Positions 778 to 60,217 of a DNA stretch of 64,000 nt are shown here, in pieces. Numbering within the stretch: position 1 is the first letter of the stretch; every line of letters starts with the position of its first letter. The DNA comes from Chrysomallon squamiferum (taxonomy: Eukaryota > Animalia > Mollusca). The stretch lies in assembly GCA_012295275.1 (NCBI GenBank), contig CM022670.1:21948001-22012000 (forward strand). Reading direction: 5' to 3'. The notes under the pieces were generated by a model, which was not told where the DNA came from, searched no databases, and saw only the letters and a program-made list of their open reading frames with translations. The translations under genes were made by a program, and so were the position numbers.

Positions 778-7511
<6,734 letters not shown>

Positions 7512-7739: not shown

Positions 7740-7980
7740 ACGGACAACAAGGAAACACACTGCAGCCATGTTGTGTTAAACTAGACACTGTGATCCCGGA
7801 AGACTTGTTGTTGTTCTTCAAGGCGTAGACGCTTAGTCAACGTTTACTGTCACATTATGTGTATTGTTCCTTCTCACTGCACGGTGCAAACTGAATATAC
7901 ATATGATTAACTGGGTCACACTGCACACATACTCTGTGTCACTCTTCATTCACTGTATAAACAGTATTCTATGAAATACT
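7740..7980 (-). pseudogene. Relic leader start and upstream region of a deleted paralog
   Basis: tgcagccatgttgtgttaaactagacac (ATG GCT GCA GTG on the minus strand) plus an upstream block like the paralog promoters; the coding part breaks off after a few codons. Upstream block repeated at about 50780-50970. Confidence 0.55.
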
Positions 7981-8023
7981 TTTATCAAATAAACAAAGCT
8001 ATAATAATAATAATAATAATAAC

Positions 8024-8061
<38 letters not shown>

Positions 8062-8072
8062 TAATAATAATA

Positions 8073-8103
<31 letters not shown>

Positions 8104-8438
8104 TAATAATAATATAGTAATAATGGTAGTAGGAGCAGCAGTAGTAGTAGTAATAATAATAACAATAATAGTAGTAGTAGAGAGACGTAGTGGTAGTAGT
8201 AGTAGTAGGAGGAGGATTAGTGGTGGTGGTGGTAGTTTTGGTTTGTTGTAATATCAGTAGCAACAATATTAATATCGGAAGTATTTTTGCAGATGAAAAC
8301 AAATATATTAGCACAAAATAACAAATAACGGCTATATTGTCTTTTCTGTTTGAAAGTTTTAAATTTATTACTTCAAATGAGTACAGTTTTTTTCTTCTGT
8401 GTGTGAGTTGCATCTATCTTTTTAGTGTCAGTATGTGA

Positions 8439-8587
<149 letters not shown>

Positions 8588-9622
8588 TACCTGTTTAATC
8601 ATATTTAACAGAAAAAGGAGTATAACGTTACTTCGTCTTTAAATAAAGGAAAATACACAGTTATCTAAAAATAAATCTTTCTCTGAGTTAAATCAGTATT
8701 TGTGTAACAGTGTAAAATATCTGTCGAGCAAATTATAGCTGTCACTGTGATTCAACAAGACATCTACATTAGTTAGTAGTTCTTTTCCTTCTTGTATATG
8801 TCTTTGTTTGTTATTTTTCGGGGTTGTTTGTTCTTCTTGTAGTCGTTATATTTCCTTATTTATTTTTATCGTTCTTTGTGTTATCAAATATGAAAAATTA
8901 CTTCACTAGGTAAATACAGCTGTAATATGCATTTATTTATTTGGTTTTTTGTGTGTTGTTTTTTATTCCTTTGTTTATTTATTTATTTAATAACGTTAGA
9001 AAATAGCAAATGTTCATTAAATTTTGTTTTCAAATTTCTATCTTCTTAGCATACAGTAATACATAGAAACAAACGCATCCACGAAACAAATGACAGCCAC
9101 ACACAGAAACACACATACACACATGTATCTGTGTGTTTGTGTCGTGTACGTATATATATACTGTGACTCTTGTGACAGAAGTTATTAGAAGCATGGGTTT
9201 GTAATCTTATTAAGTATACAAACACATTCATACAAAAAGTAAAACAAGCATTTTATTTGAATAAAACCAATAGAAGTCTGTTACATGAAACTGTTAAGGT
9301 CATATTTACACAGAGTGGAACCTCTTAGTCTGAAAGAATTAAAACTAGTGATATAAAATAAGTGTGAGTAACAAAGCAATGCATGTACAAAAGAGAGGCA
9401 AACGTTTTATCTAAAAAGACCGCGATAGATATCACACACAAAAAATACATCTTTCTTTATTAATCTAATTACTGAACTTCACAATATTTATGTTTTTATC
9501 TAACTCGTTTTAGAAAAAAGGAAAGTATTTTCATGAAGGAATTTGTTATCATGGTATAGATTATTCTTTCTAGAGAATATATCCGAAAAATACTTTAAAT
9601 GATGACTGTTACTTTCTTTTAA

Positions 9623-12600
9623 TTATGTCATGTTTATTTTGTCGTATGGAGATCCTTGGTCAACACATTCAACTTGCAAAGCATCGTAATCATTAGTGTG
9701 TCGTTGGTCATCTTGTGTGCCGTGTTGCGTGTGTCCTGAAGATCTTCTGTTACGTTCGATAGGTCCTTGATGTGAGGAAGAGGCAGAACCATTTGCATCA
9801 TCAACAACAGCTTCGTACACAGGATGAGCCATGGTAGTTGCTGTAGTTTGGTTTTCTCTATTTTTCTCAAAGGTTACAGACGGCTCCGTCGGTTTGGGTC
9901 TTCTCCGATAAACCCTGAAATTGATATTTCTCTTTTCATAGAAACATCTGTTGTGATTTAAATTATAATACAGGTAATACACCAAGTATGATCGATCACT
10001 GATTATTGAGAAATAAATATTCTCGAGTAAATTTGTGAATCAGCGATATATTGATAAAGCATCCCTTCCTCATGAAAATATAAACACAATTATATTTAAA
10101 ACCCCCAAAAATCTAAATCTCATTTTCATAGTAATTAATGTTGACCTAAATCAAAACGTTTAATATTATCGAAAACAAGAGAAAATGCAAAATATATTTT
10201 CTTACGTAATAACAAGAATGAGGGCAGCTCCACTGAAAATCAAGGCTAAAGCTGTGATAGATGACAGAATAATGACACTAGTCTGTGTGGTTTTCTGATC
10301 TGGAACTGAAGATAAATTATCGGTATGTATAGACGAATGAATGTTTTATAACAAATTAGTAAACATACATTGAAGTAAACACAAAATTATTTTTCTACCT
10401 GTGCAGTCCTGTCTTGTCCATCCATATTCACATCCATTTTGACATTTTCCACTGATGTGATTACACTCTGAAAGTCCACTACAGTGTCTTTCTGTACATG
10501 ATCTTGAACATTTTGGACCATACCATCCTTTGTCACAAGCTAAAATCAAAAATGTATTTCCAAGTAGAAAGAAAAATATATACTATATTATTTTGTTCAT
10601 GACTGAAAACAGTTCGAAATTCTCCAAATGATAAAATGTACCAATACAAGAAGTATCCAAATTTAACTGTCCGATGCAAAAAACGTTGAGGTAACCAGTC
10701 TAAAACAAACAATCTTCAAACAATTTTAAACTGTGATTAATGTAAAAACGAAAATATAAAAATAAAATACTCACGTTGCTTACAGAGGTGACCTTGGTAT
10801 CCGTCTTTACAAACTCCTGAACACTTTCCAGAAATAAAATCACACGTTTCTGTTTTACACTGACCACACGTAGAATTACAGTCAAATCCGTATTTTCCAG
10901 ATCTGCATTCTGAAAACAAAAAGTGCCAACTTACACATCAGTTTCAGCTGTGATGAGAATAATAACAATAGTACTGCTGACAAAGATAATGCATTGTTAT
11001 AAACATAGAAACTCTTACCTATCCAAATAAATATATATGCACATAAGATACAAACACAAACACGCACACACATACAAGAACATGCAAACAAGAAAATACA
11101 GTGATTCTTAAATATTTCAAATGAAACAATGGTTGAACAAGGTAAAAAAAAAAAAAAATAAAAATAAAAATGAAATGTAAAAAACGATAATAATAATAAT
11201 AACTAACCCCAAAACAATAAATAGATGAAGAAACTAAGAAAAACAAATAAAAAACTTGATATCCAGCTTTTCAGCCATTTTTACATTGTCCTTGTATTGT
11301 TTTTACATTCACCACAAATAAAATTACAATTAGATCCCAATTCTGCACAGTCTCATTCTGGATACAATGGAAAAGATCTGTTACTTATGTAATTTAACAT
11401 CTATAACACATTGCACTGTAACATAGACCAATCTTTGTATCAGTAAAAACTAAATATAATCATTTGTAAGAAGAGAAAAGAAAATAAAAATAAAAAATAA
11501 AAGTAAATAGATAAAAAAAAAAATTAAATAAATAAAATAAAAAGATAAAATTAAAACAAAAACTGAAATCTAAAAATGTACAACCAAATTTAACTGTCCG
11601 ATGCAAAAAACGTTGAGGTAACCAGTCTAAAACAAACAATCTTCAAACAATTTTAAACTGTGATTAATGTAAAAACGAAAATATAAAAATAAAATACTCA
11701 CGTTGCTTACAGAGCTGACCTTGGTATCCATCTTTACAACCTCCTGTACAATTTCCAGAAATAAAATGACATGTTTCTGTTTTACACTGACCACACGTAG
11801 AATTACAATCAAATCCGTATTTTCCAGATCGGCATTCTGAAAACATACAAAGTGCTAGCTTACACATCAGTTTCGTAATTTTTATTTGTATTAATATATT
11901 CACACATACATACATACCTACACCTGTCAGTTATCTATATTTGATTCTTGCATTTTTCTATTATGTTTTCTATTTTTTGTTCTTTCTTTACCAATACTAC
12001 TACTACTACTACTATTACTACTAGTACCTATTATTACTATTACTATTACGACTACTACTATTACAACTACTACAACTACTACTACTACCACCACTACCAC
12101 TACTACTACTTGTACTACTACTCCTAATACTCATATTGTTATTATCATCACTATTATCATTATTATTATTTACATTCACTTCAGTGCATGGATCCTTATA
12201 GTTTTTCCTTTTTATTATTATCAGTATTATCAATATGATGATGCTGATTACTATTATTATTATCATGATAGTCCTGTAACAATATCGCCATTTACTCTAA
12301 CTGAATTTAGGATATGTGAAATGTAGAGTACGACTGACTTTGTTTGCACAAGATTCCGTCGTAACCTTCAGTACAACCTCCAGTACAATTTCCAGAAACT
12401 CTATCACATGGCTTGCTTCTACAGTTCCCACATCTAGATTCACAGTTTTTATCATATGATCCTGGATTACATTCTGCAGTTATTGAAATAGGAACAAAAC
12501 CAATAAAATAATGAACAATTGTTTAACGACAAAACAGTTGATTTTAATATTAAGAATAATTATGTTTCAGGCCTGCTTCTCAGAAAGAGAGCCTCCTTCA

Positions 12601-13019
12601 TAACTTTCAAATACTTATGATCAGTAAGAATTTAAACTATTATTGTATAATTAAATCATTTCTTCAAACTTTCCACACTGTTTTAAAAATGTTGTATTGA
12701 TAACTGTGTTTCTATGTATTTCAAAGCGAACACTGATCCTATACCTTTTCTACAGTCTGTTCCATTCCATCCTGACGTACATCCTGCAGTGTCACACTTT
12801 CCTGTCTGTACGTCACAAGACGAGTGTGTGTTAACACAGTGACGTTTTTTACACAACTTGTCACAGTTAGAACCATACTTCACGTTCAGCTCACATGCTA
12901 ATATAATGTGATGTTATATAAATACCTTGTTACAGATATAATCCTTTTTTTAAATATTATTGTTTCGACTGTAACATTTAGTACATGATGACTTTCAACA
13001 ACATTATGAACCAATAACC

Positions 13020-13089
<70 letters not shown>

Positions 13090-15101
13090 TTTTTTTTTTT
13101 CATCATCATATTAATCATTCTCCGGAAGAACAGGAGTTTTAAAATAATAATAGTTTAAGCAAATTGCTCACATTAACTCACAAGATATCGTTCAAGTGCA
13201 TGATGATAAATTATTAACATATTTATCCAGAAGAAATGTTCATAGTATTTATATACTTAAGATTTGCAAGAATTTAAACTATTAATACATAATTACAATA
13301 TTTTGTTTCTTCAAACTTCCAATCTGTTTTTCAAGGTTGTATTCATAACTCTGTTTCTATATATTTCAAAGCAAACACTGAACCTGTACCTTCTTTACAG
13401 TCTGTTCCAGTCCATCCTGCCTTACATCCTGCAGTGTCACACTTTCCTGTCTGTATGTCACAAGATGAGTGTGTGTTAACACAGTGACGATTTTTACACA
13501 ACTTATCACAGTTAGAACCATACTTGACATTCAGTTCACACGCTAATACAGTGTAATGTAATGTAATGTAAATACTTTCTCAGACATATAATATTCGTTT
13601 ATTTTTAGTACTGTGTTTTGAATGTAACATTCAGTACATTATGATATTCTACAACAATTGTTTAAAACACTGTGAACCAACAACAGTTATTTAGTATTAC
13701 TGTTGTTGTTCTTATTATTAATTATTATTCGTCATCATAATCATCAATATCATCATTATTAATAAATCATCTGGTTACTTATTGGTAGTTTTATTCCTGT
13801 GAAAAGGAATCTTTAAATAATTATAGTTTAAGCAAATTGTTTACTTTAACTCACCATATACTTCAACTTCCAGAAAATCTAAAGCTGTACCAATGTCTTG
13901 ACCATTGTTTGTTCCTTGGTAGACAGTCACATATCTGGCATTAACATTACACGTGAAATTCACGACATCATTAATATCAGATCCATCTTGTTTACCACTA
14001 ACAGTACCACACAGATGTCCTGTGTTAGATGAATTAACTGCTGTGTTTGTGTAGATCTGTACTCCTCGTCTTCGTTTTTTGACTTTAGTACATAAAAATA
14101 TATATGAAATATAGAGTTTTATGTATCCCATTATATAAAGTTATTAATCTGAAATAAAGTTGCAATGTTCTAATAAATAAATAAATAAATAAACTTTTAA
14201 TATCGCGTTTTACTGAAAAGGAGGAAAACAACAAGAACAACAAAAGAAGACAAATTAAAAACTGTAATCATCTGCTGTCTACATTCCTGTTTAAATACAG
14301 TAAACATGCTCTCTTGAAAATATTCCATTTAGTGTATGTGTATTTATATAATAACTGTAATTAATCAAGTCATTCTGAATAATATATATACTACACGACA
14401 CACGATGTAAATATAAAATGTGCATCAGCGTGCTGTATAATGTGATCTTCCTTCAACTTACTGTAATTATACAATAAATATGTAATTATACTATGAATAT
14501 GTATATGTGTGTATGTATGTATTTATGAATTAAAAAAATGCACTGGCACAGGAAATTCTTTTATTACTCAAAATATTAATCAGTTTCTAATTTTATGTCT
14601 AGGGATTCGATTTAACTTAAAATTGACCATTGTAATGTTTATCACAGTTTGTTTTGTGTGTATGTATGTATGTATGTATGTATGTAGTTTAGGATTTTCA
14701 ATATTCTTATGTACGTGTGAATAGACTCTGCACATAGGCAATATTCGGGAACGCACTAGCGCAGGAGGACAAAGTCCAATCACGACCTCACAAACCCGTC
14801 AGATACCGCTGACATGACTCGAACGTAAGGCACACATTCGCACGCACTCCAAAGGCGGACGATGTCACCGTTCGGCTATAAGACAACCTTAAAAAAGTTG
14901 CTCCATAACCGAGTGTAATCATCGCGTCCCTCGAAGCACGCCGTTCTTTGTCTTTCGTCATTCTTGCGTGCATCTATTTTTTGTGAGAAACCTGGCACTG
15001 GCAAGTGTGTAGCTTAGGATATTTAATATTCTCTCTCTTATGTATGTATCTATGAATGTATTTATGTATGTATGTATGTATGTATGTATGCAACTATCCA
15101 T

Positions 15102-15146
<45 letters not shown>

Positions 15147-15755
15147 AAGAGATATATATATATACGTACGTATATAGGTATGTATGATATATGTGTATGT
15201 ATGTATGGTATGTGTATATATACATCTATGTACGTACGTATATATAAAATGTAGGTTTTCATGAATATGCTGGTATTGTTTTATCTATATTTATAAATTT
15301 AGAAAACAAACTAAAAACAAATACAATAACAAACAAACAAACAACAACAACAACAACAACAACAATAATAATAAGAAGAAGAAGAAGAAGAAGAAAAGAA
15401 AAAGTAGTATATGATCAGAAATAGATATATACAAAATGCACTTCACTAAAATATATTTACTTACAATCAGTTCTAAAATATATTTTGACTTCACGAACAA
15501 AGTACAGTTTTCCTAGATCCACTTCCCACCACGTGTAAGATTTGCCTATGGCTGTGTGCATAAAGTTTTGTCCATTTTGTTTTGTGACTCCATCAACAGC
15601 TGTAGATGCTTTGAAATTACCAAGGTAAGAACTCTGGTAAGCTGGCTTTCCTTTAGCTACATTTACTGATCAAAATGAAATGAAAAAATATTTAATAAAA
15701 ATATGAATAGCAATATCGTACACATATACACAGCGACATACGAAGATACACAAAC

Positions 15756-15787
<32 letters not shown>

Positions 15788-16309
15788 AAACATTCCTATG
15801 CAGGACCCACACATATTATTATAACAAATTCGTTAGTATATTATGTCTAATCAAATATTCGGAGAATTCTGGCAGTAACATTTCTGGGCAGATTATGTCT
15901 ATATCTATAATCTAGGTATATACACAAGACACACATATTCACACAAATGTACATAGACATGCATAAACACACACATACAAATAGAAGGTATAGGCATATA
16001 TTGAGACATATGTATGTAGTTTAAGATTTTGAATATTCTCTATCCTATATACAAACAATATATACATACACACAAACATACACAGCTTCGTATTTAACTA
16101 TATATTAATTATAAGCATATAGGACGAACACGCAAACACACACTCACACGCGCATGCACACATAAACACATACATACATACACACGTACATACATATATC
16201 TATGTGTGTATATATGTTTAAACGACTTACCAAACTCTGCTAAAATGTGAACTTGAAACGTGAAAAGAAAACAGAGAAAAACATAAAACTCCAAGTAAAC
16301 TGCAGCCAT
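9623..16309 (-). CDS. Gene B: F-type lectin + 6 EGF-like + TM + ITAM-like tail receptor (about 583 aa)
   Basis: Exons: leader 16231-16309; FTLD 15465-15665 and 13855-14082; EGF 13390-13542, 12745-12897, 12339-12473, 11702-11836, 10775-10909, 10399-10539; TM 10206-10305; tail 9623-9914. All GT-AG, total 1752 nt. Tail carries YEAV and YDAL-x10-YDKI. Confidence 0.9.
14684..15042. mobile_element. GC-richer dispersed repeat between the FTLD exons of A, B and D; related ends inverted in gene C intron
   Basis: Copies at about 4175-4410, 14684-15042 and 47872-48240 begin tagtttaggatttt(c/g)aatattct and (B, D) end in a similar direct repeat next to (TATG)n; reverse-oriented related ends at about 22450-22520 and 23500-23570; absent from the equivalent intron of C. 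Confidence 0.5.
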
Positions 16310-16500
16310 GTTGTGTTAATCTAGACACTGACATCTAGGGTCTTGTTCGTGGCGCACATGTTTACTCAACTTTTAGTTTAACGTTATGTCTATTGTTCCT
16401 TCTTACCGCATGACGCAAACTGATTACAGGTTATGACACTGCAGATAGACCAGTTATCAGGTTTCATTCACTGTGTGTACACTAATCTATAAAAAAATCT
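16310..16500 (-). promoter_or_regulatory. Putative proximal promoter block shared by A, B, C and D leaders
   Basis: Directly upstream of each ATG; contains TGACGCAA (CRE/C-EBP-like; 5793, 7267, 16411, 27558, 49141) next to a TTCCTT ETS-like core. Conservation may only reflect recent duplication. Confidence 0.3.
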
Positions 16501-16558
16501 TGCAAGCGCGTACCCGTTTATAATCTTTAATAGAAAACGGAAAATACTGCTGCACATT

Positions 16559-16659
<101 letters not shown>

Positions 16660-16720
16660 TACAGAGACAGAGCAAAAACAGATCAATATAAATAAGGTTT
16701 AACATTTTTTCTTTTTCTAC

Positions 16721-16769
16721 AGAGTTCATGGGTGTGTTCCTGGCTGGCAGGGTGTGGACTGTAACAAAA
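16721..16769 (+). pseudogene. Third inverted EGF pseudo-exon (internally deleted)
   Basis: After tttctacag, reads GCVPGWQGVDCNK then a GT donor; flanks match 51606-51655 and 51800-51900. Confidence 0.6.
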
Positions 16770-17535: not shown

Positions 17536-17700
17536 CGTGATTACTTAGTTCTGTCTTTGATCTCTTGTTGCTTCTGTTGGCCCATGGCTATATGTTCTTT
17601 GATGGCTTGAAAAGGTGCGAGTATCATTTATCTATTGTAAATGAAATAATATTATTTTTCTAAAATAATAATAATGATAAAACATTATTATTATTATTAT

Positions 17701-17750
<50 letters not shown>

Positions 17751-18010
17751 TTGGTGTCATTATAACGTAATAAATAATAGGATTTATATATATATTCAGT
17801 TTATTTTTTTATTTTCAGTCACGAGCCTCTGCTGATATCGGCGACTTCGAGGATGCCAAGAAACAAGGTGAGAACGCGAGAAACATCGCGACTGTAGCCA
17901 TTGTTACTGGCGCCGTACTTATAATAGCGTGTCTCATAATACGGCTGATGATACACAGTGCGGTGATGTCCCGGATCCACAGTCGTGATTACAACGCCAC
18001 ACACTACTAA
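17536..18010 (+). pseudogene. CD225/dispanin family (IFITM/PRRT-like) two-exon pseudogene or fragment
   Basis: Exon 1 17536-17614 reads RDYLVLSLISCCFCWPMAICSLMA*K with GT donor at 17615; exon 2 17819-18010 after tttcag reads SRASADIGDFEDAKKQGENARNIATVAIVTGAVLIIACLIIRLMIHSAVMSRIHSRDYNATHY*. Matches CD225 hallmarks (DY, CC..P, SR..GD..A..AR, C-terminal TM). In-frame TGA at 17608-17610, phase mismatch at the junction, no 5' start found. Confidence 0.75.
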
Positions 18011-19439: not shown

Positions 19440-21820
19440 ATTCTTAGTTTTTTATGTAATTCTGCAACTCCTTGATATTTCTTTATATTGTTTTATGTGT
19501 CACACAGCTTCACACAGAATCAAACGCGACGTTCAGCTCAGAGGCTAGTATAATATAATATAATATAATATAATATAATATAATATAATATAATATAACA
19601 TAACATAATATAATATATATATATCGTACTGATGATTAACCTATATCATTCAAACATTTTTCAATGTTGTTCTACAGGATAGGAGTGTGTCACCAGCAGC
19701 GCACTATCACAGACGACTTTGTTTATTTTCATAATATTCTACTGGAGTAAAGTAGTTTCTGTGTCAGTATACTGAAGTGGTATTTCTCAAAACTGTTGCT
19801 CTAAGACGTAGATGAATGACAATGAGGATGACGATCACATAAACAAGCAGTAACAAGTTAGATTTAATTATATTTACTTAATCCTTAAATAGACAAAAAA
19901 ACAAAAAACAAATCCTGGATTTAATAAATAAAACATTTCTTTATTTCTGAATTTTTTTATTTTAATAATGTATTTCCATGACACACATTCACTATCTGGA
20001 AGAAATTCAATAATGATTTCCAATAAACTAATAAATCAGCATAATAAGTATATATGAAAAGTACACCAATGATGTGAACAAGATAAACGTTAAATAAAGA
20101 AAACAAACAGGATAATTTACAAATATACGTGGACGAATGCTTTCTCGTGCGTCAAAGTTCAGTAAATAAGAAAAAGCATGAGCTAAATGGGTCAGTAAGG
20201 AAAATGTTATCAAATGTTTTCCAAACTGTTTCCATAAACATTGAGTAAGATACTTTGAGCTGTCTAACATATATTTCAAATTACCTTTAACTATCATTAA
20301 ATAAATATGTTTAGTAATATTTAGTAAATTAACTTTGTTTTGAAAACAAAGAAAAACCCACATCAATACAAAAAAGAAAAGAAGAAGAAAAAAAAAATAT
20401 TAAAGAAAGGAAAAGAGAAAATAAGAGAAATAAAAAACAACCGCAGCATCAACAAAAGCAAAAAGAAGAAGAAGCAAAATGGTAAAAAGACAACAACAGC
20501 TAATCAAACAATCACAAAACTTTGGTTGTCTCGGACATGTGTTATATCATCATTATTTTCTGAAATATTTTCATCATGTTAACAAAATTACGTCTGCTAG
20601 GTTTCTGTCTCTAAAAACAGGTTGAATGTATTTCTATGTTGTCTGGAAATGTACAGAAAATCGTGGAAGTGTTTATATCTTACTCATTTGCTCGTATGCA
20701 GATCCTTGATCAACAGCTTCAACTTGCAAAGCCTCGTAATGATTTGTCTCTTGTTGGTTGTCGTCTGTGTTGTGTTGTGTGATTTCACCATCAAGTTGTC
20801 CTGCACATTTTCTTTTACGTCTGGGAGATTTCTGATCTGACGCAGGGGCAGCATCCACATCGTCGTCAACAGCTTCGTATACTGGAGCACTTGCCGTTGC
20901 TGTTGTTGATTGGATATTTTGACTTTTAAAAAAAGACACAGCTGGTTCCTTCGATTTCGTCGCTGTTCTTTTGCTCCTGAAATTATTTATTTATTTAAAT
21001 CAACAGATTTAATTCAATTTATGGTTTCCTTTCCTAACACATATTATGAAATGTTCGGTCGATATATTACGTTTCTTGAGACACAGATGTTTAATCATTA
21101 ATAAATATCTGAATGTAATGTTTGTTCAGTACAGTAAATATTGTATAACATATTAAATTATTTGCTTACCTAATAACTAGAATAAGTGCAGCTGCACTTA
21201 AAATCAAGGCTAAAACTGTGAGACATGAGAAAAGGACACTAACACTGTCTGTGATTATTTGTTGTAAAACTGAAAAAAATCAGCAAAACAAATATTACAG
21301 TTTAATAAAATTTAAGTCACAAAATATCGTGAAAGATTACACGTGTAAATGTATTTATTAAATAAAAATAAAACATTTTCATTAAACAACATGAAAAAAA
21401 TAATATTCTACTAAGCGACAACCATAACTGAAAGGAATAAATGCATATTGTTACCTGTATTACAAGATATACCCTGCCACCCGGCAACGCACCCATCAAC
21501 GCATAATCCTGTCATAAAATCACATTTCTGGTTACCATGGCAATGTCTGTCAGCGCAGATCTGGAGGCAACCTTCACCATACATGCCAAGAGGGCACTCT
21601 GTGACTGAAACGTGTACACCGTTATTAATTATCTTTTTAAAACACAAACGTACATCCATGTACGTGCCTAACTACTTTGTTACACAAAAACTAAAAAATA
21701 AAGGACAGCATTACATAAATACAGACTTACGCGAATATTGCAGAAATACAAAAATACATACAAAAGAATACACACAAAATTATATCATTCATGGAACAGT
21801 TTGATTACTCATGGTCTCTC
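19440..21820. repeat. Segmental duplication: 3' module of C matches about 53998-56490 (3' module of E)
   Basis: Collinear homology from downstream flank through tail, TM and CPLG-EGF exon, ending at gattactcatggtctctc. Confidence 0.9.
19495..19544 (-). pseudogene. Decayed CELNV-type EGF exon relic downstream of gene C (copy at about 54050-54126 downstream of E)
   Basis: gacgttcagctcagaggctagtataatataat resembles the acceptor and 5' end of the ACELNVKYG exon (gacgttcagctcacacgctaatacagtgtaat); contains a stop and deletions. Confidence 0.45.
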
Positions 21821-22261
21821 GCTCCACAAAATAACAATTACTATGTGCATGTTGTAAAATGTATGTTTGTGTAACCCTTCCCTTCACATGGCTCAAGCAA
21901 ATTAGTGAGAGTACAACCGGTCCTAAAACATTCTTCGGGTGATGCCATAACCAAATCTACCAACAAAACCTCTGAATACTGGGGTTGCCACGACAATATC
22001 TTTTTTCTTTTTAACTTTGACAGTTGCTGGACTAATTAATTCTTAAAGTAGACACACACACACACACACATACAAACGCGCACACGCACACACATACTTT
22101 CCAAAGAATGAAGCACACTGTTTTTTTCTTCAGTTTACACAAGTAGATTTACATTCTTTGTCATATCTTCCTGCTCTATTTAAGACAGTTAACAAAAATA
22201 ACCATAGTAAAGGATAAAATAATTAATAGTCGTTTACATTTTAGCTGAAATGTATTGTGTT

Positions 22262-22322
<61 letters not shown>

Positions 22323-22695
22323 TAAAACAAAAACAAATAAACAAACAAACAAACAAAAAGATTGTCTCGATTGCTGTAACGTCGTCCGTCCACGCAGTGC
22401 TGGCGAGTGGATGTCATACGTTCAAGTCTCGTTACGGCCATCTGACGGGTTTGTGAAGTCTTGATGTGCAGAGTCTATTCAGACGTTCATAAGACAGAGA
22501 ATATTCAAAATCCTAAGACAAACACACTCACACACTCATACACACACAGATACATATATACACACACACATACATACATATCAGTTATGTATATTTGGTT
22601 CTTGCATCTTTCTATTATGTTTTCTATTTTATTTTTTATTTTTTTATTCATATTACTATTACCATTTCTGCTAGTACTACTACTTCTACTGATCC

Positions 22696-22737
<42 letters not shown>

Positions 22738-23100
22738 CACAATTATAATTATTATTATTATGTACATTTACTTCAGTGCATGGTTCAATTGTGTTTTTTC
22801 CTTTTTATTATTATGATTATGATCATGGTAATGCTGATGATTAGAATTAGTATTAGTATTAGTATTAATATTAGTATTATTAGCAATATTAGTACTATTA
22901 GTACTAAATATATGTTTGTGCAACCCTTCCCTTCACATGGCTCAAGCAAATTAGTGAGAGTACAACCGGTCCTAAAACATTCTTCGGGTGATGCCATAAC
23001 AAAATCTACCATCAAAACCTCTGAATACTGGGGTTGCTACTGCATTTTCATTTTTCTTTTTACCTTTGACAGTTGCTGGACTAATTCATTCCTAAAGTAG

Positions 23101-23131
<31 letters not shown>

Positions 23132-26100
23132 TGCACACGCACACGTACACACATACTTTCCAAAGAAAGAAGCACAATATTTCTTTCTGCGGTTTCCACA
23201 AGCAAATTTACATTTCGTGTCATGTCTTCCAGCTCTGTTTATGACAATTAATAAAAATAACCATAGTAAAGGATAAAATAATTAATAGTCGTCAACGATA
23301 TGCCATTACGTTTTAACTGAAATGTGTTGTGTCTATATGTGTGTATGTGCGTGCGTGTGTGTGTGTGAAATAAAACAAAAACAAATAAACAAACAAACAA
23401 ACAAAAAGATTGTCTAAATTGTTGTAACGTCGTCCGTCCACGCAGTGCTGGCGAGTGGGTGTCATACGTTCAAGTCTCGTTACGGCCATCTGACGGGTTT
23501 GTGAAGTCTTGATGTGCAGAGTCTATTCAGACGTTCATAAGACAGAGAATATTCAAAATCCTAAAACACACACACTCACACACTCATACACACACACAGA
23601 TACATATATACATACACACATACATACATACATACATAAATACATAGATACATACACACATACATACATAAATACATAAATACATAGATACATACACACA
23701 TACATACATAAATACATACATACATACATACATACATACACACATACATACATACATATCAGTTATGTATATTTGGTTCTTACATCTTTCTATTATGTTT
23801 TCTATTTCTTTCTTTTTTTGTTATTCATATTACTATTAGCATTTCTGCTAGTACTACTACTTCTACTGATCCTGTAATTATTATTATTATTATTATCATT
23901 CTTATTGTTCTTATTATTCTTCTTATTATTATTATCACAATTATAATTATTATTATTATGTACATTTACTTCAGTGCATGGTTCAATGGTGTTTTTTCCT
24001 TTTTATTATTATGATTATGATCATGGTAATGATGATGATTAGAATTAGTATTAGTATTAATATTAGTATTATTAGCATTATTATTATTAGTCGTATTATT
24101 AGTATTATTACAATTATTATTATTATAGTCCCATAACAATAGCTGCATTTATTTTTACTGAAATAAGGATATGTAAAATGTAGAGTACGACTGACCTTGC
24201 TTGCAAAAGATACCTTCGTAACCTTCAATACAACCTCCAGTACAATTTCCAGAGATTCTGTCACATCGCTTGCTTCTACAATTCTCACATCTAGATTTAC
24301 AGTTCTTACCATATGTTCCTGGACTGCATTCTGCAGTTATTGAAATAAGAACAAAACCAATAAAGTAATAAACTGTCGTTTAATCACATTACAGTTGATT
24401 TTAATGTTAAGAATAATTGTGTTTCGGGCCTGCTTCTCAGAGACAGAGCCTGCTACTAGGTATCGTTCGAGTGGATAATGATAAATTGTTAATATATTTT
24501 TCCCAGAACAAATTTCCATAACATTTATACACTTTTGATTTGTAAGAATTGAGACTATTATTACATAATTAAAATATTTTATTTCTTCAGACGTTCAAAT
24601 TTTTTTAAATGTTGTATTGATAACTGTGTTTCTATGTATTTCAAAGTAAACACTGATCCTATACCTTCTCTACAGTCTGTTCCATTCCATCCTGCCGTAC
24701 ATCCTGCAGTGTCACACTTTCCTGTCTGTACGTCACAAGATGAGTGTGTGTTAACACAGTGACGTTTTTCACACAACTTCTCACAGTTAGAACCATACTT
24801 GACTTTCAGCTCACACGCTAGTACAATGTAATGTAATGTAATGTAAATACTTTCTCAGATATATAATATTCGTTTATTTTTAGTACTGTGTTTTGAATGT
24901 AACACTCAGTACATTATGATATTCTACAACAATTTATCAAAACACTGTGAACCTAAAAACTATTTATTATTACTATTGTTGTTGTTCTTATTATTAATTA
25001 TTATTCGTTATCATAACCATCAATATCGTCATTGTTAGTAAATCACCTGGTTACTTATGGTGTTTTTATTACGGTGAAAACGAATTTTAAAATAATTAGA
25101 GTTTAAGGAAATTGCTCACTTTAACTCACCATATACTTCAACTTCCAGAAAATCTAACGCTGTACCAATTTCTTCACCATTATCTGTTTCTTGATAGACA
25201 GTCACGTATCTGGCATTAACATTACACGCAAAACTCACGACATCAGGAATATCGGATCCATTTTTACTACCAGTAACAGTACCACACAGATGTCCTGTGT
25301 TAGAAGCATTTACAGCTCTGTTTGTGTATATCTGTACTCCACGCCTTCGATTCTTCACTTGAATAAATAAAAATAGTATATGAAATATTGAGTTTTATGT
25401 ATCCTATTATATAAAGTTAATAATATGAAATAAAGCTGCAGTGTTCTAATAAATAAATAAATAAATAAACTTTTAATATCGCGTTTTACTGACCAGCATT
25501 AGATAGTGTCTAAATCTAATTTAAGAACCTAAGAAATCTCTTTGAAAAAAACAAAAAAACAAAAGAAGACAAACTGAAAATCGAAATCATCTGCTGTCTA
25601 CATTCCTGTTTAAATACAGTGTCCATTCTGTCTTGAAAATGTTCCTTTTACTGTCTGTGTATTTATATAATAACTGTAATTTATCAAGTCCTACTAAATA
25701 ATACATATACTACAGAACAAAATATGTATAGTGTGGTCTTCCTTCAACTTACTGTAATTATATGAATAATATATGTGCGTTTGTATGTATGCATGCATGC
25801 ATGCATGTATGTATGTATGTATGTATGTAAAATATGTATTCGTTAATATGTAGGTATTTTTTCTGTCTATGTATATAAAAGTAGAAAACAAACCAAGAAC
25901 AACTACAATACCAAACAGCAACAATAACAAAACAAGAAGAAGAAGAAGAAGAAGAAGAAGAAGAAGAACAACAACAACAACAACAACAACAAGAAAAGAA
26001 CAACAAAAAAGAAGAAAAAGTAGTATATCATAAAAGAAAAAAAAAACATTTAAGAAAAATGCACATCACCAAAATATGTTTACTTACCGTCAATTCTAAA

Positions 26101-26880
26101 ATATATTTTCACTTCATGGACAAAGTACAGTTTTCTTAGATCCACTTCCCACCAAGTGTACGACTGTCCAATTGCTGTGTGCATAAAGTTAAACCCCTTT
26201 TGTTTTGTTACTCCATCAACAGCTGTAGATGATTTGTAAATGTCATAGTAAGAACTCTGGTAGGATGGCTTTCCCTTAGCTACATTTACTGATCAAAATG
26301 GAATTAAAAAATATTTAATAAAGATATGAATATCAATATCGTAGACATATACACAACGACATATGAAGAAACAGGTACCGGACCAATTATCCGGCGTCCT
26401 GAAATCCGGAAAGACAAGAAAACCGGAATTTGTTTTCCAGATGCTGTTTTCATAGTTCGCGAGCGCAGGTGTTGTCCTCACCAGACCGAAACTACTCTTT
26501 CAAGCCGCGTGGCATTCTTTTACTCGCCGAATTGTTTCCGTGTCGAGTCGCCACACTTGTGTATCGTCAATTTTCTTTATATTTTTAATTTTAAAATGTT
26601 CATGCATAATTATTTACGTATTTAGATGCCTTGATACCAGAAAACCTCAGGCCCCAAGGAGTCCGGATAATTGGTCCGATATCTGTACATACATATGAAA
26701 AAAGATGCCTCATACTACAGATATTATTAAAACAAATTTTTCCGTTTCATTATTTCTAATCAAAGATTAGGATATTGGTGGCAGTAACATTGCGTCATTT
26801 TTCGTCAAAATGACAGTTTTGAATAACTGCAAGGACTGAAGGAACTTCACATCTATCTATCTACATATCTATCTATACAC

Positions 26881-26926
<46 letters not shown>

Positions 26927-27191
26927 ATATACATATACATACATATATATATATACAGATAGATAGATAGATGCACACAGACATAAACACACATACACAT
27001 ATACATATACACACATACATAACACATTCATAAACACATGCAAGCATAGCTATACACATATATATAGTGAGAGATATGCAAACATATGTATATATTAATT
27101 ATACATATATAAATGCATAAGGACGAGGGTACATATATACATACATACATTTTTACGTATATAGATAAAACATACATATACACACATACAG

Positions 27192-27222
<31 letters not shown>

Positions 27223-27447
27223 CAAACATTATATACATACACACATACATAGCTAAGTATTTAATTATTGATTTATTATAAGCATATACGGACGATCTAA
27301 CACCCACACATATATACATCCATATATACATACATATATGTATGTGTGTACATTTTTAAACGACTTACCAAACTGAGCTGAAATATGAACTTGAAACGTG
27401 AAAATAAAGAAGAGAAAAACATAAAACTCCAAACAAACTGCAGCCAT
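20673..27447 (-). CDS. Gene C: F-type lectin + 3 EGF-like + TM + YxxL/YxxM tail receptor (about 447 aa)
   Basis: Exons: leader 27369-27447; FTLD 26088-26288 and 25130-25357; EGF 24665-24817, 24196-24330, 21455-21598; TM 21170-21269 (SVSVLFSCLTVLALILSAAALILVIR); tail 20673-20976 (VYEAV..YEAL-x10-YEQM). Total 1344 nt, in frame, GT-AG. Confidence 0.85.
21860..24110. repeat. Intronic tandem duplication (about 1.05-1.2 kb units) in gene C
   Basis: About 21860-22908 matches 22910-24110, both starting tatgtttgtg(t/c)aacccttcccttcacatggctcaagc; no exon recognised inside. Confidence 0.85.
26372..26685. mobile_element. MITE (about 314 bp), Tc1/mariner-pogo-like non-autonomous DNA transposon in gene C intron 1
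   Basis: 23-bp TIRs CAGGTACCGGACCAATTATCCGG / CCGGATAATTGGTCCGATATCTG (2 mismatches); TA on the right, AA on the left; the paralogous introns in gene A (about 4950, 6415) show the empty site gaagaTAcatacat. Confidence 0.85.
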
Positions 27448-32063: not shown

Positions 32064-32188
<125 letters not shown>

Positions 32189-33051
32189 AGTATATATAGA
32201 CACATAAGGATTGTTTGAATAGACAGTTGTTCATTTTTCATTGCAGAACATTACGTTTTGTCACCTAATGAATGTTTATTTTATATTTAGTCTAATTCAC
32301 AAAAAAAAAAAAAAAAATACCATACAGTTTTTCACACAGTATAATATATTACACAAATCTGATGTAAGGGTCTTTTAAAACAGATATGGCTATGTATCTC
32401 TTTAAAAAGAAGTAACGGACAAAAAAGAAACAACGCAACGTGGATTTAATTCACGACTGTATTAATATTTATGTTGTACAGCTATATAGTAAGTTCGCAT
32501 ATTTTTTCCTGTCCGTACATTATATACTAAAAACTGTACACATAATCTTTTAAAACAGATTAAAAAAACACAAAAAAGTCTACTTATAAACTATGATGAC
32601 TGTAATTCTATATGGCCTCAGACTACTTTAGCTCAAATAGATCAGAAACTTCTACGGATGTAAAAGAAATAAGTAAAATACAAGAACAAAATGTACACCA
32701 AGCACGTCATTATCTGTATAAACGATAAAATGAAATAAAAACAAATGTTCATTAAAGAGATGGCAAACAAAGTTGTATAAGAATGAATAAATAAAATAAA
32801 ATAATATTATAAACAAAAAAGAAAAAAAATATTATAAAAATAAAAAAAAAATAAATTAAATTAAATCAAACTAGTAGAACAATTAAGAAGGTAAATATCA
32901 CATGTTATAAATGGATTTTATATAAAATCTATATTTGTGTTAATGTATATGTATATATTAAACGTTTATTTATGAATATCTTTCAACCTGCCCATTTAAT
33001 GCTAACATATAAACGTAATTTTTCTTCTACAGTTAATTAGAATTGACTTAC

Positions 33052-33127
33052 CAAACTCTGCGAATATCTTAACATGAGATGTAAAAATAAAGCACACAAG
33101 AGTAAAAAACATGTACACTGCAGCCAT
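33052..33127 (-). other. Orphan intact E-type signal-peptide (leader) exon
   Basis: MAAVYMFFTLVCFIFTSHVKIFAEF + G|GTAAGT, phase 1. Flanks are homologous to the gene E leader region (about 59400-60310), but no E-type lectin exons follow. Confidence 0.75.
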
Positions 33128-33254
33128 GTTGAGTTAGTCACTGCTAACTGGGAAGTATTTTATTTCTACACACTTGTCTTTTCTATTGTTTTATTCCGTT
33201 TGTTATCACGTGAGGAATTAATGACAGTCCGTTTGTTCGTATTTGTTTTGTTTT

Positions 33255-33306
<52 letters not shown>

Positions 33307-33817: not shown

Positions 33818-33890
<73 letters not shown>

Positions 33891-34304: not shown

Positions 34305-34340
<36 letters not shown>

Positions 34341-35443: not shown

Positions 35444-50198
<14,755 letters not shown>

Positions 50199-50504: not shown

Positions 50505-50610
50505 AAAATACATAGATACATACACACATACACACATAGATACATACATACATACATACACACATATATACATACATACATACATACATATATATACATA
50601 CATACATACA

Positions 50611-50642
<32 letters not shown>

Positions 50643-51493: not shown

Positions 51494-51607
<114 letters not shown>

Positions 51608-55307: not shown

Positions 55308-58300
55308 TTATATCTTACTCATTTGCTCGTATGCAGATCCTTGATCAAAAGTTTCAACTTGCAAAGCGTCGTAATCATTTGTCTCTTGTTGGTTGTCGTC
55401 TGTGTTGTGTTGTGTGTTGTCACCATCAAGCTGTCCTGCACATTTTCTTTTACATCTGGAAGATTTCTGGTCTGACGCAGGGGCTGCATCGACATCGTCG
55501 TCAACAGCTTCGTATACTGGAGCGTTTGTCGTTGCTGTTGTGGATTGGATATTCTGACTTTTAAAAAAAGACACAGCTGCTTCCTTCGATTTCGTCGTTG
55601 TTCTTTTGCTCCTGAAATTATTTATATACATAAATCAACAAAATTTAATTAATCGTGTTTTAAGTCAGTTTATGATTTACTTTCCTAACACATATTATCA
55701 AATGTTTGGTCGATATATTACGTATCTTGAGACAGAGATATTTAATCATTAATAAATATCTGAATGTAATGTTTGTTTATTACAGTAAATACTGTATAAC
55801 ATATTAAATTATTTACTTACCTAATAACTAGAATAAGTGCAGCTGCACTTAAAATCAAGGCTAAAACTGTGAGACATGAGAAAAAGATAATAACACTATC
55901 TGTGATTATTTGTTGTAAAACTGAAAACAAAATTCAACAAAACAATTATTATAGTTTAATCAAATTTAAGTCACAAAAAAAACGCGAAAGATTACGTTTG
56001 TAAATGTATTTATTAAATAACAATACATTTTTTTATATATAAAATAAGAAGAAAACAAAATAATATTCTACTAAGCGACAACCATGACTGAGAGGAATAT
56101 AATACATATTGTTACCTGTATTACAAGATATACCCTGCCACCCGGCCACGCACCCATCAACGCATAATCCTGCCATAAAATCACATTTCTGGTTACCATG
56201 GCAATGTCGGTCAGCGCAGATCTGGAGGCAGCCTTCACCATACATGCCAAGAGGGCACTCTGTGATTGAAACGTGTAAACCAGTATTAATTATCTTTTAA
56301 AAACACAAACGTACGTTCTTGTACGTGCCTAAATACCTTGTTAAAAACAAATATAATAAAAGACAGTATTACATAAACACACACTTACGAGCATATTCCG
56401 TACGTGCATACACAAATACAAATATACATGCAAAACAGTAGACACAAAATTATATCATTCATGGAACAGTTTGATTACTCATGGTCTCTCATTTTCATTC
56501 TTTTATTGTTATTTTATGTAAACAATTTATGAAGAATATGTGAACAATCTCTGTTCACAGCAAATGGACATCGGATTGAAAAGAAAATCTCGATGCCAGT
56601 TACGACAGATGTGATGCATATTTAGTTCTAGCCATTAAACCAAATCCAAGCTAAAACTCTAAAAAATCCAAGGTTGTACCACCGTTAGGGTAATTATTTG
56701 TTCCGTGATAAAAAGCCACGTATTAGGCATTTGAATTAGTGAGCTAAGTAAAAGCTGAAAACAATGTGTGCTAGAAGTAAACATTTCAACTATGATTTGT
56801 GTAACACGAAGCATTGCTCGCTTTAACTCACCGTATACTTCAACTTCTAGAAAAAGCAAGGTCGTACCAGTGAGGCTGCCATGGTCTGTTCCTTGATAAA
56901 CAGTCACGTTTCTGGCATTAACATTACACGTGAAACTCACGACATCAGGAATATCAGTAACAGTACCACACAGATGTCCTGTGTTAGATGAATTCACTGC
57001 TGTGTTTGTGTAGATCTGTACTCCGAGTCTTCGCCACTCATCTAAACAGATCAGTAACTTTGAAATGAAATAACTGTTTAGAAAATGTATTTCTTATCCC
57101 AATTTAATATTAAAAAAATACTAATTATACTTGTCTATGGACTTCGCGAATCTATCTACTCTTAATGAGATGACAGTTGTTGATACCTTGTCAGCTGGTG
57201 TGATAACAATTTTGCGGTTTTTCTGTAGATTGTTTATATTAGGCGGTTCCATAACCAACATATTTTTGTTTAATCGAATAAAGCATGAAATTTCGAATAT
57301 TTCCATTCATATTTTTGGTGACGTTTTGGCTGCGTTTAAGAAATAACTATCGTTTCCAGCTATATTTACAATATGTGTACCTAATCCTATAATATTATTA
57401 TAATGAATTTCTTCTTTACCTGAAGTTAGTACACCTTTATTGATAGATTATTTTGATCATTGATTACCTGAAACTCGTTATTAAGGATTGCCTCTGTATT
57501 GTTTAGGTCTCTCAAAGTTCTAGTGGCCAAATAAATTTGCTTTAAATATGATTTTTTTTTCTTGACTTGCCAAAAGTTTAAAAACACACACATATATATA
57601 TGTATATATATTTGTAGACACAACAGTTTCCTTTTGCTATGATTTTCCATATAGAACTACCTTATTTCATAACTCACTTATTTTCTATAGGTTAATTTTC
57701 TTTTTATTATTTATGACCATTGATCTAAAAGTATTAAAGTTAAGACTCAGATAGAATTATATTTGTAGTTGAGGACGTTTACTTAAGTTAAGCAGTGATA
57801 GATTTGAGAATCTTTAAAACAAAAGGGTGTCATCATTAAATAGTACGTTTAGACGGTGTATCTGTCTGTGGTGATAATGGACTCTATTTTTGTCAGTTTG
57901 CCTGGCTGTACCGTATTATCTTTAACTTGATCAAAGTCTGGCTGTTTTCTTCTTCATTATTATTTTAAATTTAAGATTTTTAGATACTTTAATTAGTAAA
58001 TTTATTGTCCGATTGCCCAAATTTTTGTTCATTTGTGCTGAACATTAGGTTAATTGTTTTTAGTGCTGGCTTTATGAACGAGTTTAATTCTTGCCTTACT
58101 TTAGACGGCTCTAGATAGAGCAGAATGTGCATGATTCTCCTCAAGGAGTTTAATATTAAGTAAGATGAATGCATATTATGAAAGTATTTATGTATACATA
58201 TATGATGTATGATTGTATCTAGGTTTTATGTATGTAGGTATGTATTCATATCTATTCATATTACATATATCTGTTTTTATGCTGTATAATTATATGATTT

Positions 58301-60217
58301 ATGTTATTAAAAAAGTAAAAAATAAAAAGATACAGAAGAAAAAAGAGATAAAGGCAACGAAACATATTTACGTACCTTCCTCTCTGAAATGCATTTTCAC
58401 TTGTTGAACAAAGTACAGTTCTCCTAGATCCACTTCCCACCACGTGTAAGGCTGATATATCCCTGTGTGTATAAAATTGTTTCCATTCTGTTCAGTTTCT
58501 CCGTCCACAGCTAGTGATGCACTGCGTTGTGACATGTACTCGTCTGAGTAGTAAGAACTCTGGTAGGCTGGCTTATGTAGAGCTGCATTTTCTGTAGTAA
58601 ACGACAAACAAACAAGTAAACATATAATCAGTAATATCAGCTTGTATAAAAATAAATGAATTCTACATATTCATATACTTATTAGATTTCATACACGTTA
58701 CTCATTTTCCTTTCATACTTTCTATGTACTACCAGTCATTAAAAGATAACACAAATAGAAGAAAACAGTACAAATAGGCATTAAACTAAGAGTTTACTTT
58801 ATTGTTTTTTCTCAGAAATACAAGATGCGCCGCGCTACTTTTATTTATTTCGCCACAACCTGCAGTGACTTCGCTTCTCTCCTTCACTTATTATATTTGA
58901 TACACTGAGTATAATTTTCTGTAATATAATTACTGCAGGTGTAGAACTACCATTGTATTTTAGGTATAAATAGTCAGATATATCAATTCGAAAAACACAT
59001 ACCTTTTATGTTCTGTTTTATCCATAACATGCCATAATTTAACATTGAATTCTAAACTAAAATGCGAGATTTTATACTTAATTTACGTAATTCTCTGGAT
59101 TTTAAGTTCAGATGTATCATTTTACAGATTAGTCATCTGAAGCATATTTTATATCAAAATGTTTGTATTTAATACACAGTGATCTCGGAAATTTGTTTTT
59201 TGAAACCTACTGTAGACCAATCGTTATTTACCACACACATTTAATAAGTCTAGACATACACTAATATAATTATAGTGTTATATGTGTGTCTTTGTACGTG
59301 CGTCTCTACACTTTTGTACACACTGATACAAAATATTTCAGAATGGGTCTCTGCAAACTGCTATGATAATTTATCTCTTTTCGAAAATAAAATAAAATAA
59401 ATAACAACAACGGGGAAAAAAATCACGGATTCAATTCATTATTGTACTAACACTTATGTTGTCCACGTAAATTGTAAGATGTTTTGGAAACAAAGAAATA
59501 CTTCAAAAGTTAACATATTTTTTCCGTTCGTGCATTATATAACAACGTTAAAAACTGTACACATCATCTTTCAAATGACAAAGAAACAAAAACAAAAACA
59601 AAACGAAACGAAACAAACAGTTGATAAATTATTACGACTGTAATTCTAACAGAAAACCAAATATATAAATAATTTCTAAAACGCCACTGACTATTACATC
59701 TGAAATAGATCAGGATTATCTAGAACGTAAAAGAAGCATGTAAAATACATGAACAACTCTGCAACAAGAACATCACTAATAGGTATTATCATAAAACAAA
59801 TAAAACAAATTAAAACAAAAAAACTTGTTCATGAAACAGATGGCAAAGAATGTAGTTAGAGAGTGGCTATTCTGGTAATAGATTTTAAACAATGCTCAAA
59901 ATTATAAATAATATCATAAAATTAATTTAAAATAGTAACACAAGGAAGCAGGGAAATATCACGTGTTATCAAACGATTTGCTATAATCTATATATGTGTT
60001 TATACATCAGCACTAGATGTGGAGATTAATTGATAATCATAGATGAAAAGCTTATTTATAAATAATTATAAACCTCAGTGTTTCCTGCTAACATCTAAAC
60101 GTAATTTTGTCTCGTACAGTTAATCAGAATTAACTTACCAAACTCTGCGAATATCTTAACATGAGATATAAAAATGAAACACACAGTAACAGTGAAAAAT
60201 GTGCACATTGCAGCCAT
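55308..60217 (-). CDS. Gene E: divergent F-type lectin + 1 EGF-like + TM + YxxL/YxxM tail receptor (about 350 aa)
   Basis: Exons: leader 60139-60217 (MAAMCTFFTVTVCFIFISHVKIFAEF); FTLD 58376-58591 and 56832-57041; EGF 56116-56259; TM 55821-55920; tail 55308-55611 (YEAV..YDAL-x10-YEQM). Total 1053 nt, in frame. Confidence 0.88.
57050..58170 (-). mobile_element. Degraded Penelope-like retroelement fragment in the gene E lectin intron
   Basis: Broken frames contain LQKNRKIVITPADKVSTTVI (PLE-type I.PADKG..V motif) and LLNLSKRP...LSLNF; absent from paralogous introns. Boundaries approximate. Confidence 0.5.

Follow-up and report, generated by a model that had tools for sequence, protein, structure and literature searches.

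A receptor gene of Chrysomallon squamiferum is a mosaic of a phosphatase-type ectodomain and an ITAM-like tail, and matched ITAM/PTP receptor pairs recur in other molluscs

Introduction

How does a receptor gene come to carry the extracellular part of one relative and the signalling tail of another, and which relative was the donor? This question is raised by a 64,000-nucleotide stretch of the Chrysomallon squamiferum genome (GenBank assembly GCA_012295275.1, contig CM022670.1, positions 21,948,001 to 22,012,000; hereafter the window), AT-rich animal DNA with abundant microsatellites in which five related genes lie on the minus strand in the transcription order E, D, C, B, A. We modelled these genes by hand from GT-AG boundaries, and all models are predictions. 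Common to the five are a signal peptide, an F5/8 fucolectin-type domain, epidermal growth factor (EGF) exons and one transmembrane (TM) segment; the tails of A, B, C and E comprise ~95-100 residues, whereas D instead runs on into tandem protein tyrosine phosphatase (PTP) domains. The original prediction held that B is a chimera in which the ectodomain of the PTP gene D is joined, within an EGF exon, to an A-type tail resembling an ITAM (immunoreceptor tyrosine-based activation motif). We find that B is such a mosaic, with a more complex history than a single crossover, and that the same pairing of ITAM-like and PTP receptors is present in three other mollusc genera.

Results

Gene B combines a D-type ectodomain with an A-type tail

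Block identities between B and its paralogs were computed with microsatellites masked, together with a 100-nucleotide sliding comparison. On the ectodomain side, B 10910-11586 is 88.7% identical to D 44122-44933 (443 sites) and has no counterpart in A, C or E, B 11837-12338 is 92.0% identical to D 45069-45507 (213 sites) as against 60.6% to A, and B 15250-15800 reaches 93-99% identity to D in each 100-nucleotide window. On the tail side, B 10540-10774 is 90.9% identical to A 1703-1937 (219 sites) and has no match in D; the A-type part of B as a whole (Table 1) matches A at 86-98% by block, likewise with no D counterpart. The coordinate pairs on which the original prediction was built are thus confirmed.

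The same division emerges from the phylogenies. Informative sites in the 5' blocks common to A, B, C and D favor the AC|BD split (56 sites) over AB|CD (8) and AD|BC (10), and the 5' DNA tree unites B and D with 100/100 support while rejecting an A+B grouping (p = 7.6e-6). The tree of the TM segment and tail groups A with B and C with E, each with 100/100 support, and the two trees together bear out the predicted mosaic of D-type ectodomain and A-type ITAM-like tail. Furthermore, the identity between A and B, which the original prediction had singled out as a test, is not uniform along the gene: in non-coding sequence it is 1441/1683 (85.6%) upstream and 1051/1155 (91.0%) downstream (Fisher p = 1.5e-5). 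At synonymous sites, the divergence is 28/165 upstream but 3/123 downstream. Locally, B exon 4 is closer to A (93.5%) than to D exon 4 (89.5%), and the distal part of D intron 1 is closer to A than to B.

Two EGF exon duplications were originally described as lacking in A. At exon 4/4', the intron 3 copies resemble each other at 69-74%, and in the tree a separate clade unites the second copies. The exon 4/4' duplication is, as judged from these sequences, older than the B/D split, a shared structure rather than a proven B-D innovation, and A and C may therefore have lost it.

The main switch lies within exon 8 and is not the only exchange

Diagnostic sites in the exon at 10775-10909 (exon 8, encoding CRSGKYG) show B to be D-type at 10884, 10876 and 10841 and A-type at 10869 and 10845, and all 9 diagnostic sites from 10800 to 10775 are A-type. 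The main switch therefore falls in the last third of the exon (Table 1), the one to which it had been assigned at the outset, and its interval narrows to 10801-10840 unless the D8 base at 10800 is a later private change.

Two further tracts complicate this picture. The A-type tract at the end of exon 7 sits directly on the donor site of a D-type intron and contains a run of 118 nucleotides identical to B 10657-10774, which is only 88.9% identical to the corresponding sequence of A; it is likely a recent copy of the exon 8 region of B into exon 7. The earlier statement that B introns match D from the promoter to exon 8 thus fails at this tract. In addition, B and D share a younger exchange tract around the promoter and lectin exon 2, with 28/777 mismatches inside it and 279/3244 elsewhere (p = 5e-7, the boundary having been set after seeing the data). 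A single crossover is consequently too simple, and at least three exchange events are needed.

Read contigs carry the exon 7 junction

Part of B is contained in nine public DNA runs from three studies. The junction at 11585 is crossed by a mismatch-free contig in 4/4 runs compared, from three studies (11556-11613 in runs X1 and X4, 11556-11628 in X2 and X7); each contig has 29 D-side letters against the 31 of a strict bridge and is counted as support only, and one of the four runs may be the source sample. Since the 11585 tract is identical to the exon 8 flank of B itself, D-type intron and B-type 3' sequence have undergone exchange, and an assembly mis-join is insufficient to explain it. Other read contigs carry D-type exon ends on D-type intron 7 as loose ends, which indicates that the A-type exon end of B at intron 7 is the derived state.

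Between 9500 and 13700, the uncovered bins at 12038-12178 are skipped repeats. Contig depth in X1 on EGF exon 4' is 4061, compared with 101-409 in neighboring bins, a weak hint, in which depth is not used as a copy number, that there are many more paralogs than the window shows.

Lectin domain and tail of gene B, and phosphatase domains of gene D

The predicted product of B comprises a signal peptide, a fucolectin-type domain, six EGF exons, a TM segment and an ITAM-like tail. Exon 2 matches PF22633/PF00754, and a frameshift suspected there was checked and found absent. The closest named relatives of the third exon are Gigantopelta aegis proteins (71-73% identity), and, among PDB entries, the Gigantopelta relative matches FBP32 best (E = 1.6e-10). 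F-type lectins bind sugar through a His...Arg-x-Asp...Arg motif; B has H-x27-R-x-D-x4-R, and A and D carry Asn in place of the Asp. Between B and D, 16/144 residues of the lectin domain differ (15465-15665 and 13855-14082), including Asp for Asn in R-x-D and nearby loop residues, so the ligands of B and D may not be identical.

The YDAL-x10-YDKI segment of the A and B tails fits the ITAM pattern YxxL/I-x6-12-YxxL/I, which is also matched by Gigantopelta P0008 and arises in 0.055% of 20000 shuffles. The TM segments of A and B hold no charged residue, unlike those of activating receptors coupled to adaptors of the DAP12/FcR-gamma type. When the B tail alone served as query, none of 41 candidates matched at E up to 10.

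In gene D, the WPD loop and the HCSAGVGRTG motif are intact and the second PTP domain is degenerate, as expected from the sequence of an active classical receptor PTP (HCxAGxGR, WPD loop, second degenerate domain). Three of its exons match PF00102, two of them above cut-off, and a VYAN motif stands at the C-terminus. The terms "inhibitory" for D and "activating" for B, as originally proposed, fit these motifs and are to be taken as motif-based labels. The 5' end of D is a patchwork (48998-51606) in which exon 1 stands intact at 50198-50120; it also includes an older copy of the promoter, which is likewise present in the upstream region of A (7809-8587).

Gene C is a second hybrid, and the cluster has been rearranged repeatedly

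Gene C, absent from the original prediction as a hybrid, is a second such gene: it is 93.5% identical to E in the tail and 96% in the TM segment, and its intron 5 is of the B/D type. Together with the orphan E-type first exon (33127-33049), these E-type last EGF, TM and tail parts and the B/D-type intron 5 clearly point to C as a recipient. The intron of C that contains the switch also holds an 87% tandem duplication (21857-23630) with two B/D-type copies of intron 5 and pieces of a repeat that also occurs, in inverted orientation, within intron 2 of both A and D, and upstream of C lies an unexplained 84% non-coding tandem duplication (27697-28874 versus 29499-30615).

Table 1. Features of the cluster and of the exchange tracts in gene B (positions in the window)
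Feature	Position	Strand	Description
Gene B	9623..16309	-	predicted 11 exons, open frame of 583 residues; all 10 introns GT-AG
Gene B exons 1-6	16309-16231, 15665-15465, 14082-13855, 13542-13390, 12897-12745, 12473-12339	-	
Gene B exons 7-11	11836-11702, 10909-10775, 10539-10399, 10305-10206, 9914-9623	-	
B tail exon	9623..9914	-	YEAV, then YDAL-x10-YDKI
D-type part of B	10841..16729	-	promoter to first half of exon 8, broken at 11585-11718
A-type part of B	8676..10791	-	exon 8 end, last EGF, TM, tail exon, 3' flank
Main switch, D-type to A-type	10792..10840	-	inside B exon 8, from diagnostic sites
Second A-type tract	11585..11718	-	B exon 7 end and next 117 nucleotides, directly on donor site of D-type intron
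Younger B/D exchange tract	15250..16729	-	promoter, exon 1 start, intron 1 end, lectin exon 2
Gene D	35444..50198	-	predicted 26 exons, 1086 residues, open frame; signal peptide, fucolectin-type domain, 5 EGF exons, TM, tandem PTP
Gene C	20673..27447	-	second hybrid; ectodomain of A/B/D type, last EGF, TM and tail of E type
Orphan E-type signal-peptide exon	33049..33127	-	upstream of C
Gene A	778..5691	-	short-tail sister of the 3' part of B; 4 EGF exons; exon 1 donor TT
Gene E	55308..60217	-	divergent lectin domain, 1 EGF, TM, short tail

The donor of exon 1 in gene A (5611-5612, and its copy near 7085) reads TT rather than GT, and splicing at the GT sites close by would put the exons out of phase; in this haplotype, A may therefore lack function. 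Its promoter and first two exons are tandemly duplicated (4563-5954 versus 6026-7428), with 1392/1392 aligned bases identical and (GA)n tracts on the flanks, which makes the duplication either very recent or an assembly artefact. At the other end of the cluster, gene E follows a second PTP gene that is present with its 3' end, its 5' end being located beyond 63.5 kb. An older segmental duplication (31700-37300 versus 59900-63400, 70-87%) comprises a PTP 3' end, an E-type promoter and a first exon, and therefore suggests that a PTP gene together with a short-tail gene formed a repeating unit. Between C and B, a CD225-like fragment on the plus strand (17550-18010) matches PF04505 below cut-off (E = 0.0012), and the exon-like stretch that precedes it contains an in-frame stop.

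ITAM/PTP pairs with matched ectodomains occur in other molluscs

The ectodomains of B and D, which lie within 41 kb, are 87.7% identical over 406 residues, and their tails belong to separate clades. A corresponding pair is present in Gigantopelta, where P0008, with an ITAM-like tail, and the PTP protein P0001 are 88.7% identical over 397 ectodomain residues and ~50% identical to the window genes. In the cross-species ectodomain tree the sequences group by species and a PTP clade is rejected (p = 3e-52), and the TM-tail tree splits short-tailed from PTP proteins with 100/100 support. Both tail types therefore predate the split between the two snails, and the ectodomains have been exchanged within each lineage. 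The conclusion that the tail is older than the ITAM/PTP pair applies to these two snails. The Gigantopelta short tail retains the three tyrosines and the 10-residue spacing at ~30% identity.

With the P0002 ectodomain as query, the three Gigantopelta proteins were the sole matches. The search with P0003 returned 150 representatives, 149 of them new, from a library that keeps one protein per 50% cluster and in which close pairs are consequently hidden. By a crude hydropathy and motif rule, the new proteins divide into 40 with PTP domains, 62 short-tailed, 43 without a called TM segment and 4 long; among the short-tailed proteins are some truncated PTPs or kinases, and at least one match, P0073, is likely false. 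A strict ITAM is present in 20/50 short tails of 40-250 residues, with 0.55 expected, and the named members of this group come from Gigantopelta, Haliotis, Ostrea, Magallana/Crassostrea, Dreissena and Sinanodonta.

Eight candidate ITAM/PTP pairs were picked by hand, and four are tight sister pairs: B/D of the window (87.7%), the Gigantopelta pair (88.7%), Ostrea edulis P0158/P0190 (83.1%) and Haliotis rufescens P0163/P0195 (74.6%), compared with ectodomain identities between genera of at most 50% among the top matches. In the Gigantopelta, Haliotis and Ostrea pairs, both members come from contigs of equal length, so that these genes may be clustered as well. The pairing described here for the window thus recurs in three other mollusc genera, which the original prediction had not foreseen. 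In all four tight pairs, the exchange is confined to the ectodomain and halts before the TM exon. Ectodomain branches are longer on the PTP side in 4/4 tight pairs (0.11/0.023, 0.061/0.026, 0.092/0.074 and 0.086/0.035), a weak hint that the PTP partner may change faster. In the ESM Atlas, only molluscan lectin-EGF clusters were found, which we treat as a lead only. These matched pairs suggest that molluscs probably possess, as vertebrates do, a system of paired immune receptors with on and off functions.

Discussion

Direction and history of the exchange

We propose, with a probability of roughly 0.62, that ectopic recombination placed the ectodomain of a PTP gene onto a short-tail gene and so created B, a predicted activating partner of D for the same kind of glycan. 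That the transfer ran from the PTP gene to the short-tail gene, as originally suggested, we regard as probable and no firmer than that because D nests among the short-tail genes in the ectodomain tree. The two halves of B are about equally distant from their sources (88.9-90.4% to D, 91.0% to A in non-coding sequence), as a single origin would predict. A single switch in B accounts for the flanks of exons 6 and 8, whereas a model with D as recipient needs two, which favors the PTP gene as donor. Furthermore, the rising similarity to D from C to A to B fits a serial donation with differing breakpoints, in which the PTP lineage would have given its ectodomain to C, then to A and then to B; the donor may be a paralog unseen here.

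In the mechanism that we envisage, the lectin domain would bind a microbial or parasite glycan of the fucose or galactose type, the ligand would cluster B, and a Src-family kinase would phosphorylate two tail tyrosines, on which a Syk/Shark-type kinase would dock. Engaged by the same ligand, D would bring its phosphatase, strip the phosphates and reset or dampen the signal, and repeated exchange of ectodomains would keep B and D matched.

Several observations weigh against this proposal. As regards the history, the nested position of D in the 5' tree is joined by a failure to reject a short-tail clade of A, B and C in exons 1-3 with E as outgroup (p = 0.18), the protein tree of the lectin domain and first EGF fails to reject A+B (p = 0.08), and the margin in the introns common to all genes is small (B-D 88.9%, B-A 85.6%). 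The array order E-D-C-B-A is not that of a single-crossover product; a D x A crossover would delete the intervening genes, so that duplication with long conversion or a second crossover is needed. Among the contigs listed over 9500-13700, none spans exon 8 with both flanks, the longest being 337 nucleotides. As regards function, receptor PTPs can activate Src kinases, no pN/pS (the ratio of nonsynonymous to synonymous differences) above 1 was found in the ectodomains (0.35-0.76), the C and E tails end in YEQM and fall outside the strict ITAM, and the second half-site of B, SPYDKI, also matches a loose ITIM (immunoreceptor tyrosine-based inhibitory motif). The ITAM consensus as quoted in the account of an oyster receptor has D/E three residues ahead of the first Y (PMC6994640), and this D/ExxY lead-in is missing from B, where position -3 is T and position -1 is D. 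Among the other molluscs, four of the eight candidate pairs are 39-68% identical or not mutual best matches, and a PTP protein is the top ectodomain match for 11/21 ITAM proteins, no more than the 41:21 make-up of the set predicts.

Alternative explanations

The alternative that survives best, although we consider it unlikely, is that the mosaic is real but arose neutrally in an unstable tandem array, and that no function couples the pair. Many of the rearrangements adjoin (GA)n and TAA tracts, the broken donor of A, the truncated exon copy of D and the orphan exons fit such an array, linked paralogs convert without selection, and the pN/pS values stay below 1. A neutral process fits less well with exchanges that end ahead of the TM exon in every tight pair, with three aligned tyrosines and their 10-residue spacing kept in tails ~30% identical between genera, with the excess of ITAMs (20 versus 0.55), and with the preserved frame in every exchange of B.

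We hold it improbable that the direction was the reverse, with an ectodomain native to the short-tail lineage that D obtained from a B-like gene, A being remodelled separately. The nesting of D among C, A and B would then require one tail change by parsimony, and D lacks the RHC/RKC-type last EGF that is present in the Gigantopelta PTP. Intron 1 of D moreover holds a B-like promoter and truncated exon 1 (48998-49489, 96%), an insert that looks like a B-to-D transfer for the younger tract. This history nevertheless needs switches in both D and A within the same exon type, and it sits poorly with the greater closeness of A and B downstream than upstream and with C, demonstrably a recipient on a short-tail locus.

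A cooperative arrangement, in which D activates the Src kinase that phosphorylates the ITAM and the pair forms a two-part activating unit, appears to us no more probable than that reversal. PTPs of the CD45/RPTP-alpha type activate Src kinases, and D is no ITIM receptor but a receptor PTP that has tandem domains and a VYAN motif at its C-terminus. Ectodomains matched by exchange are, by analogy with the vertebrate case described in PMC5112662, a hallmark of opposing pairs. Finally, a mis-join of a D-like 5' part to an A-like 3' part during assembly is very improbable: exon 8 is a multi-copy repeat, unbridged among the contigs listed, and the perfect duplication in A is suspicious, but both halves of B are ~9-11% removed from D and A and so represent separate real copies, the 11585 junction recurs among read runs, and C and other species show like hybrids.

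A proposed paired receptor system in molluscs

Activating and inhibitory receptors matched by recombination are a textbook case in vertebrates. If our preferred reading, the transfer of a PTP-gene ectodomain onto a short-tail gene, is true, the molluscan lectin-EGF version with its catalytic phosphatase partner would represent an independent solution to the same problem. The broader proposition is that gastropods and bivalves have a widespread paired system, in which a built-in receptor PTP replaces the ITIM, new ITAM partners are copied repeatedly, and SudRes1 and LG5R, two snail loci tied to schistosome resistance, are such pairs; we put it forward tentatively, at slightly under even odds. 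It offers a testable reading for the short-tailed and PTP receptors at those loci. The window resolves the exchange to single nucleotides, with breakpoints and relative ages. The receptor family itself is known from the Biomphalaria resistance loci, and the mosaic of B is real and more complex than originally stated.

Comparison with known systems

The nearest relatives by architecture, compared through the descriptions given in the papers, are the Biomphalaria SudRes1 receptor PTPs, described as MEGF/galactose-binding receptors (PMC12297450), and the LG5R subgroups 1B, with a small tail, and 1C, with tandem PTP domains (PMC13712769). As in the window, these consist of a signal peptide, a galactose-binding/fucolectin domain, multiple EGF repeats and one TM segment, followed either by tandem PTP domains, as in 1C and D, or by a small tail, as in 1B and the genes A, B, C and E, and they are clustered and variable in EGF number; linkage to parasite resistance is a feature of Biomphalaria. 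In these accounts, the small tail is "without identifiable domain signatures"; "ITAM" and "chimer" have 0 occurrences in the main text of PMC13712769, as has "ITAM" in the text of PMC12297450. For Gigantopelta, an expansion of the fucolectin and MEGF families has been reported (PMC7895826). Within the literature searched, subscription journals and supplements being outside its scope, no ITAM/PTP pairing or ectodomain exchange was found for the lectin-EGF family.

Two invertebrate receptors resemble B in its predicted signalling. Oyster CgIgR is described as a hemocyte receptor that has a YxxL-x10-YxxL tail and recruits CgSyk; it differs from B in its Ig ectodomain, and the account of it does not describe a paired phosphatase (PMC6994640). 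Draper/MEGF10/CED-1 are likewise multi-EGF single-pass receptors with an ITAM, a Src writer and a Syk/Shark reader, but they have an EMI domain, an NPxY motif and, in Draper, an inhibitory splice isoform that binds Corkscrew (PMC8092387), whereas B has a fucolectin-type domain, HPVY rather than NPxY, and a separate PTP gene as its putative partner. No match to the EMI domain was found in P0003 or P0008.

The parallel with vertebrates drawn at the outset holds. In Xenopus and mammalian CEACAM receptors, as described in PMC5112662, conversion keeps the ligand-binding parts alike while the tails remain distinct, with an intrinsic ITAM; there, only the N exon undergoes conversion and the genes lie in opposite orientation, whereas the window has kilobase tracts that include introns, and all its genes lie on one strand. 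The nearest case is human FCGR2C, by the account in PMC6563257 an unequal-crossover hybrid that joins the ectodomain of an inhibitory gene to the tail of the activating gene with its intrinsic long-spaced ITAM. FCGR2C is built on Ig domains and has an ITIM partner that recruits a phosphatase, whereas the window genes are built on lectin and EGF domains, the partner of B carries its own PTP domains, and the hybrid reflects several overlapping exchange events.

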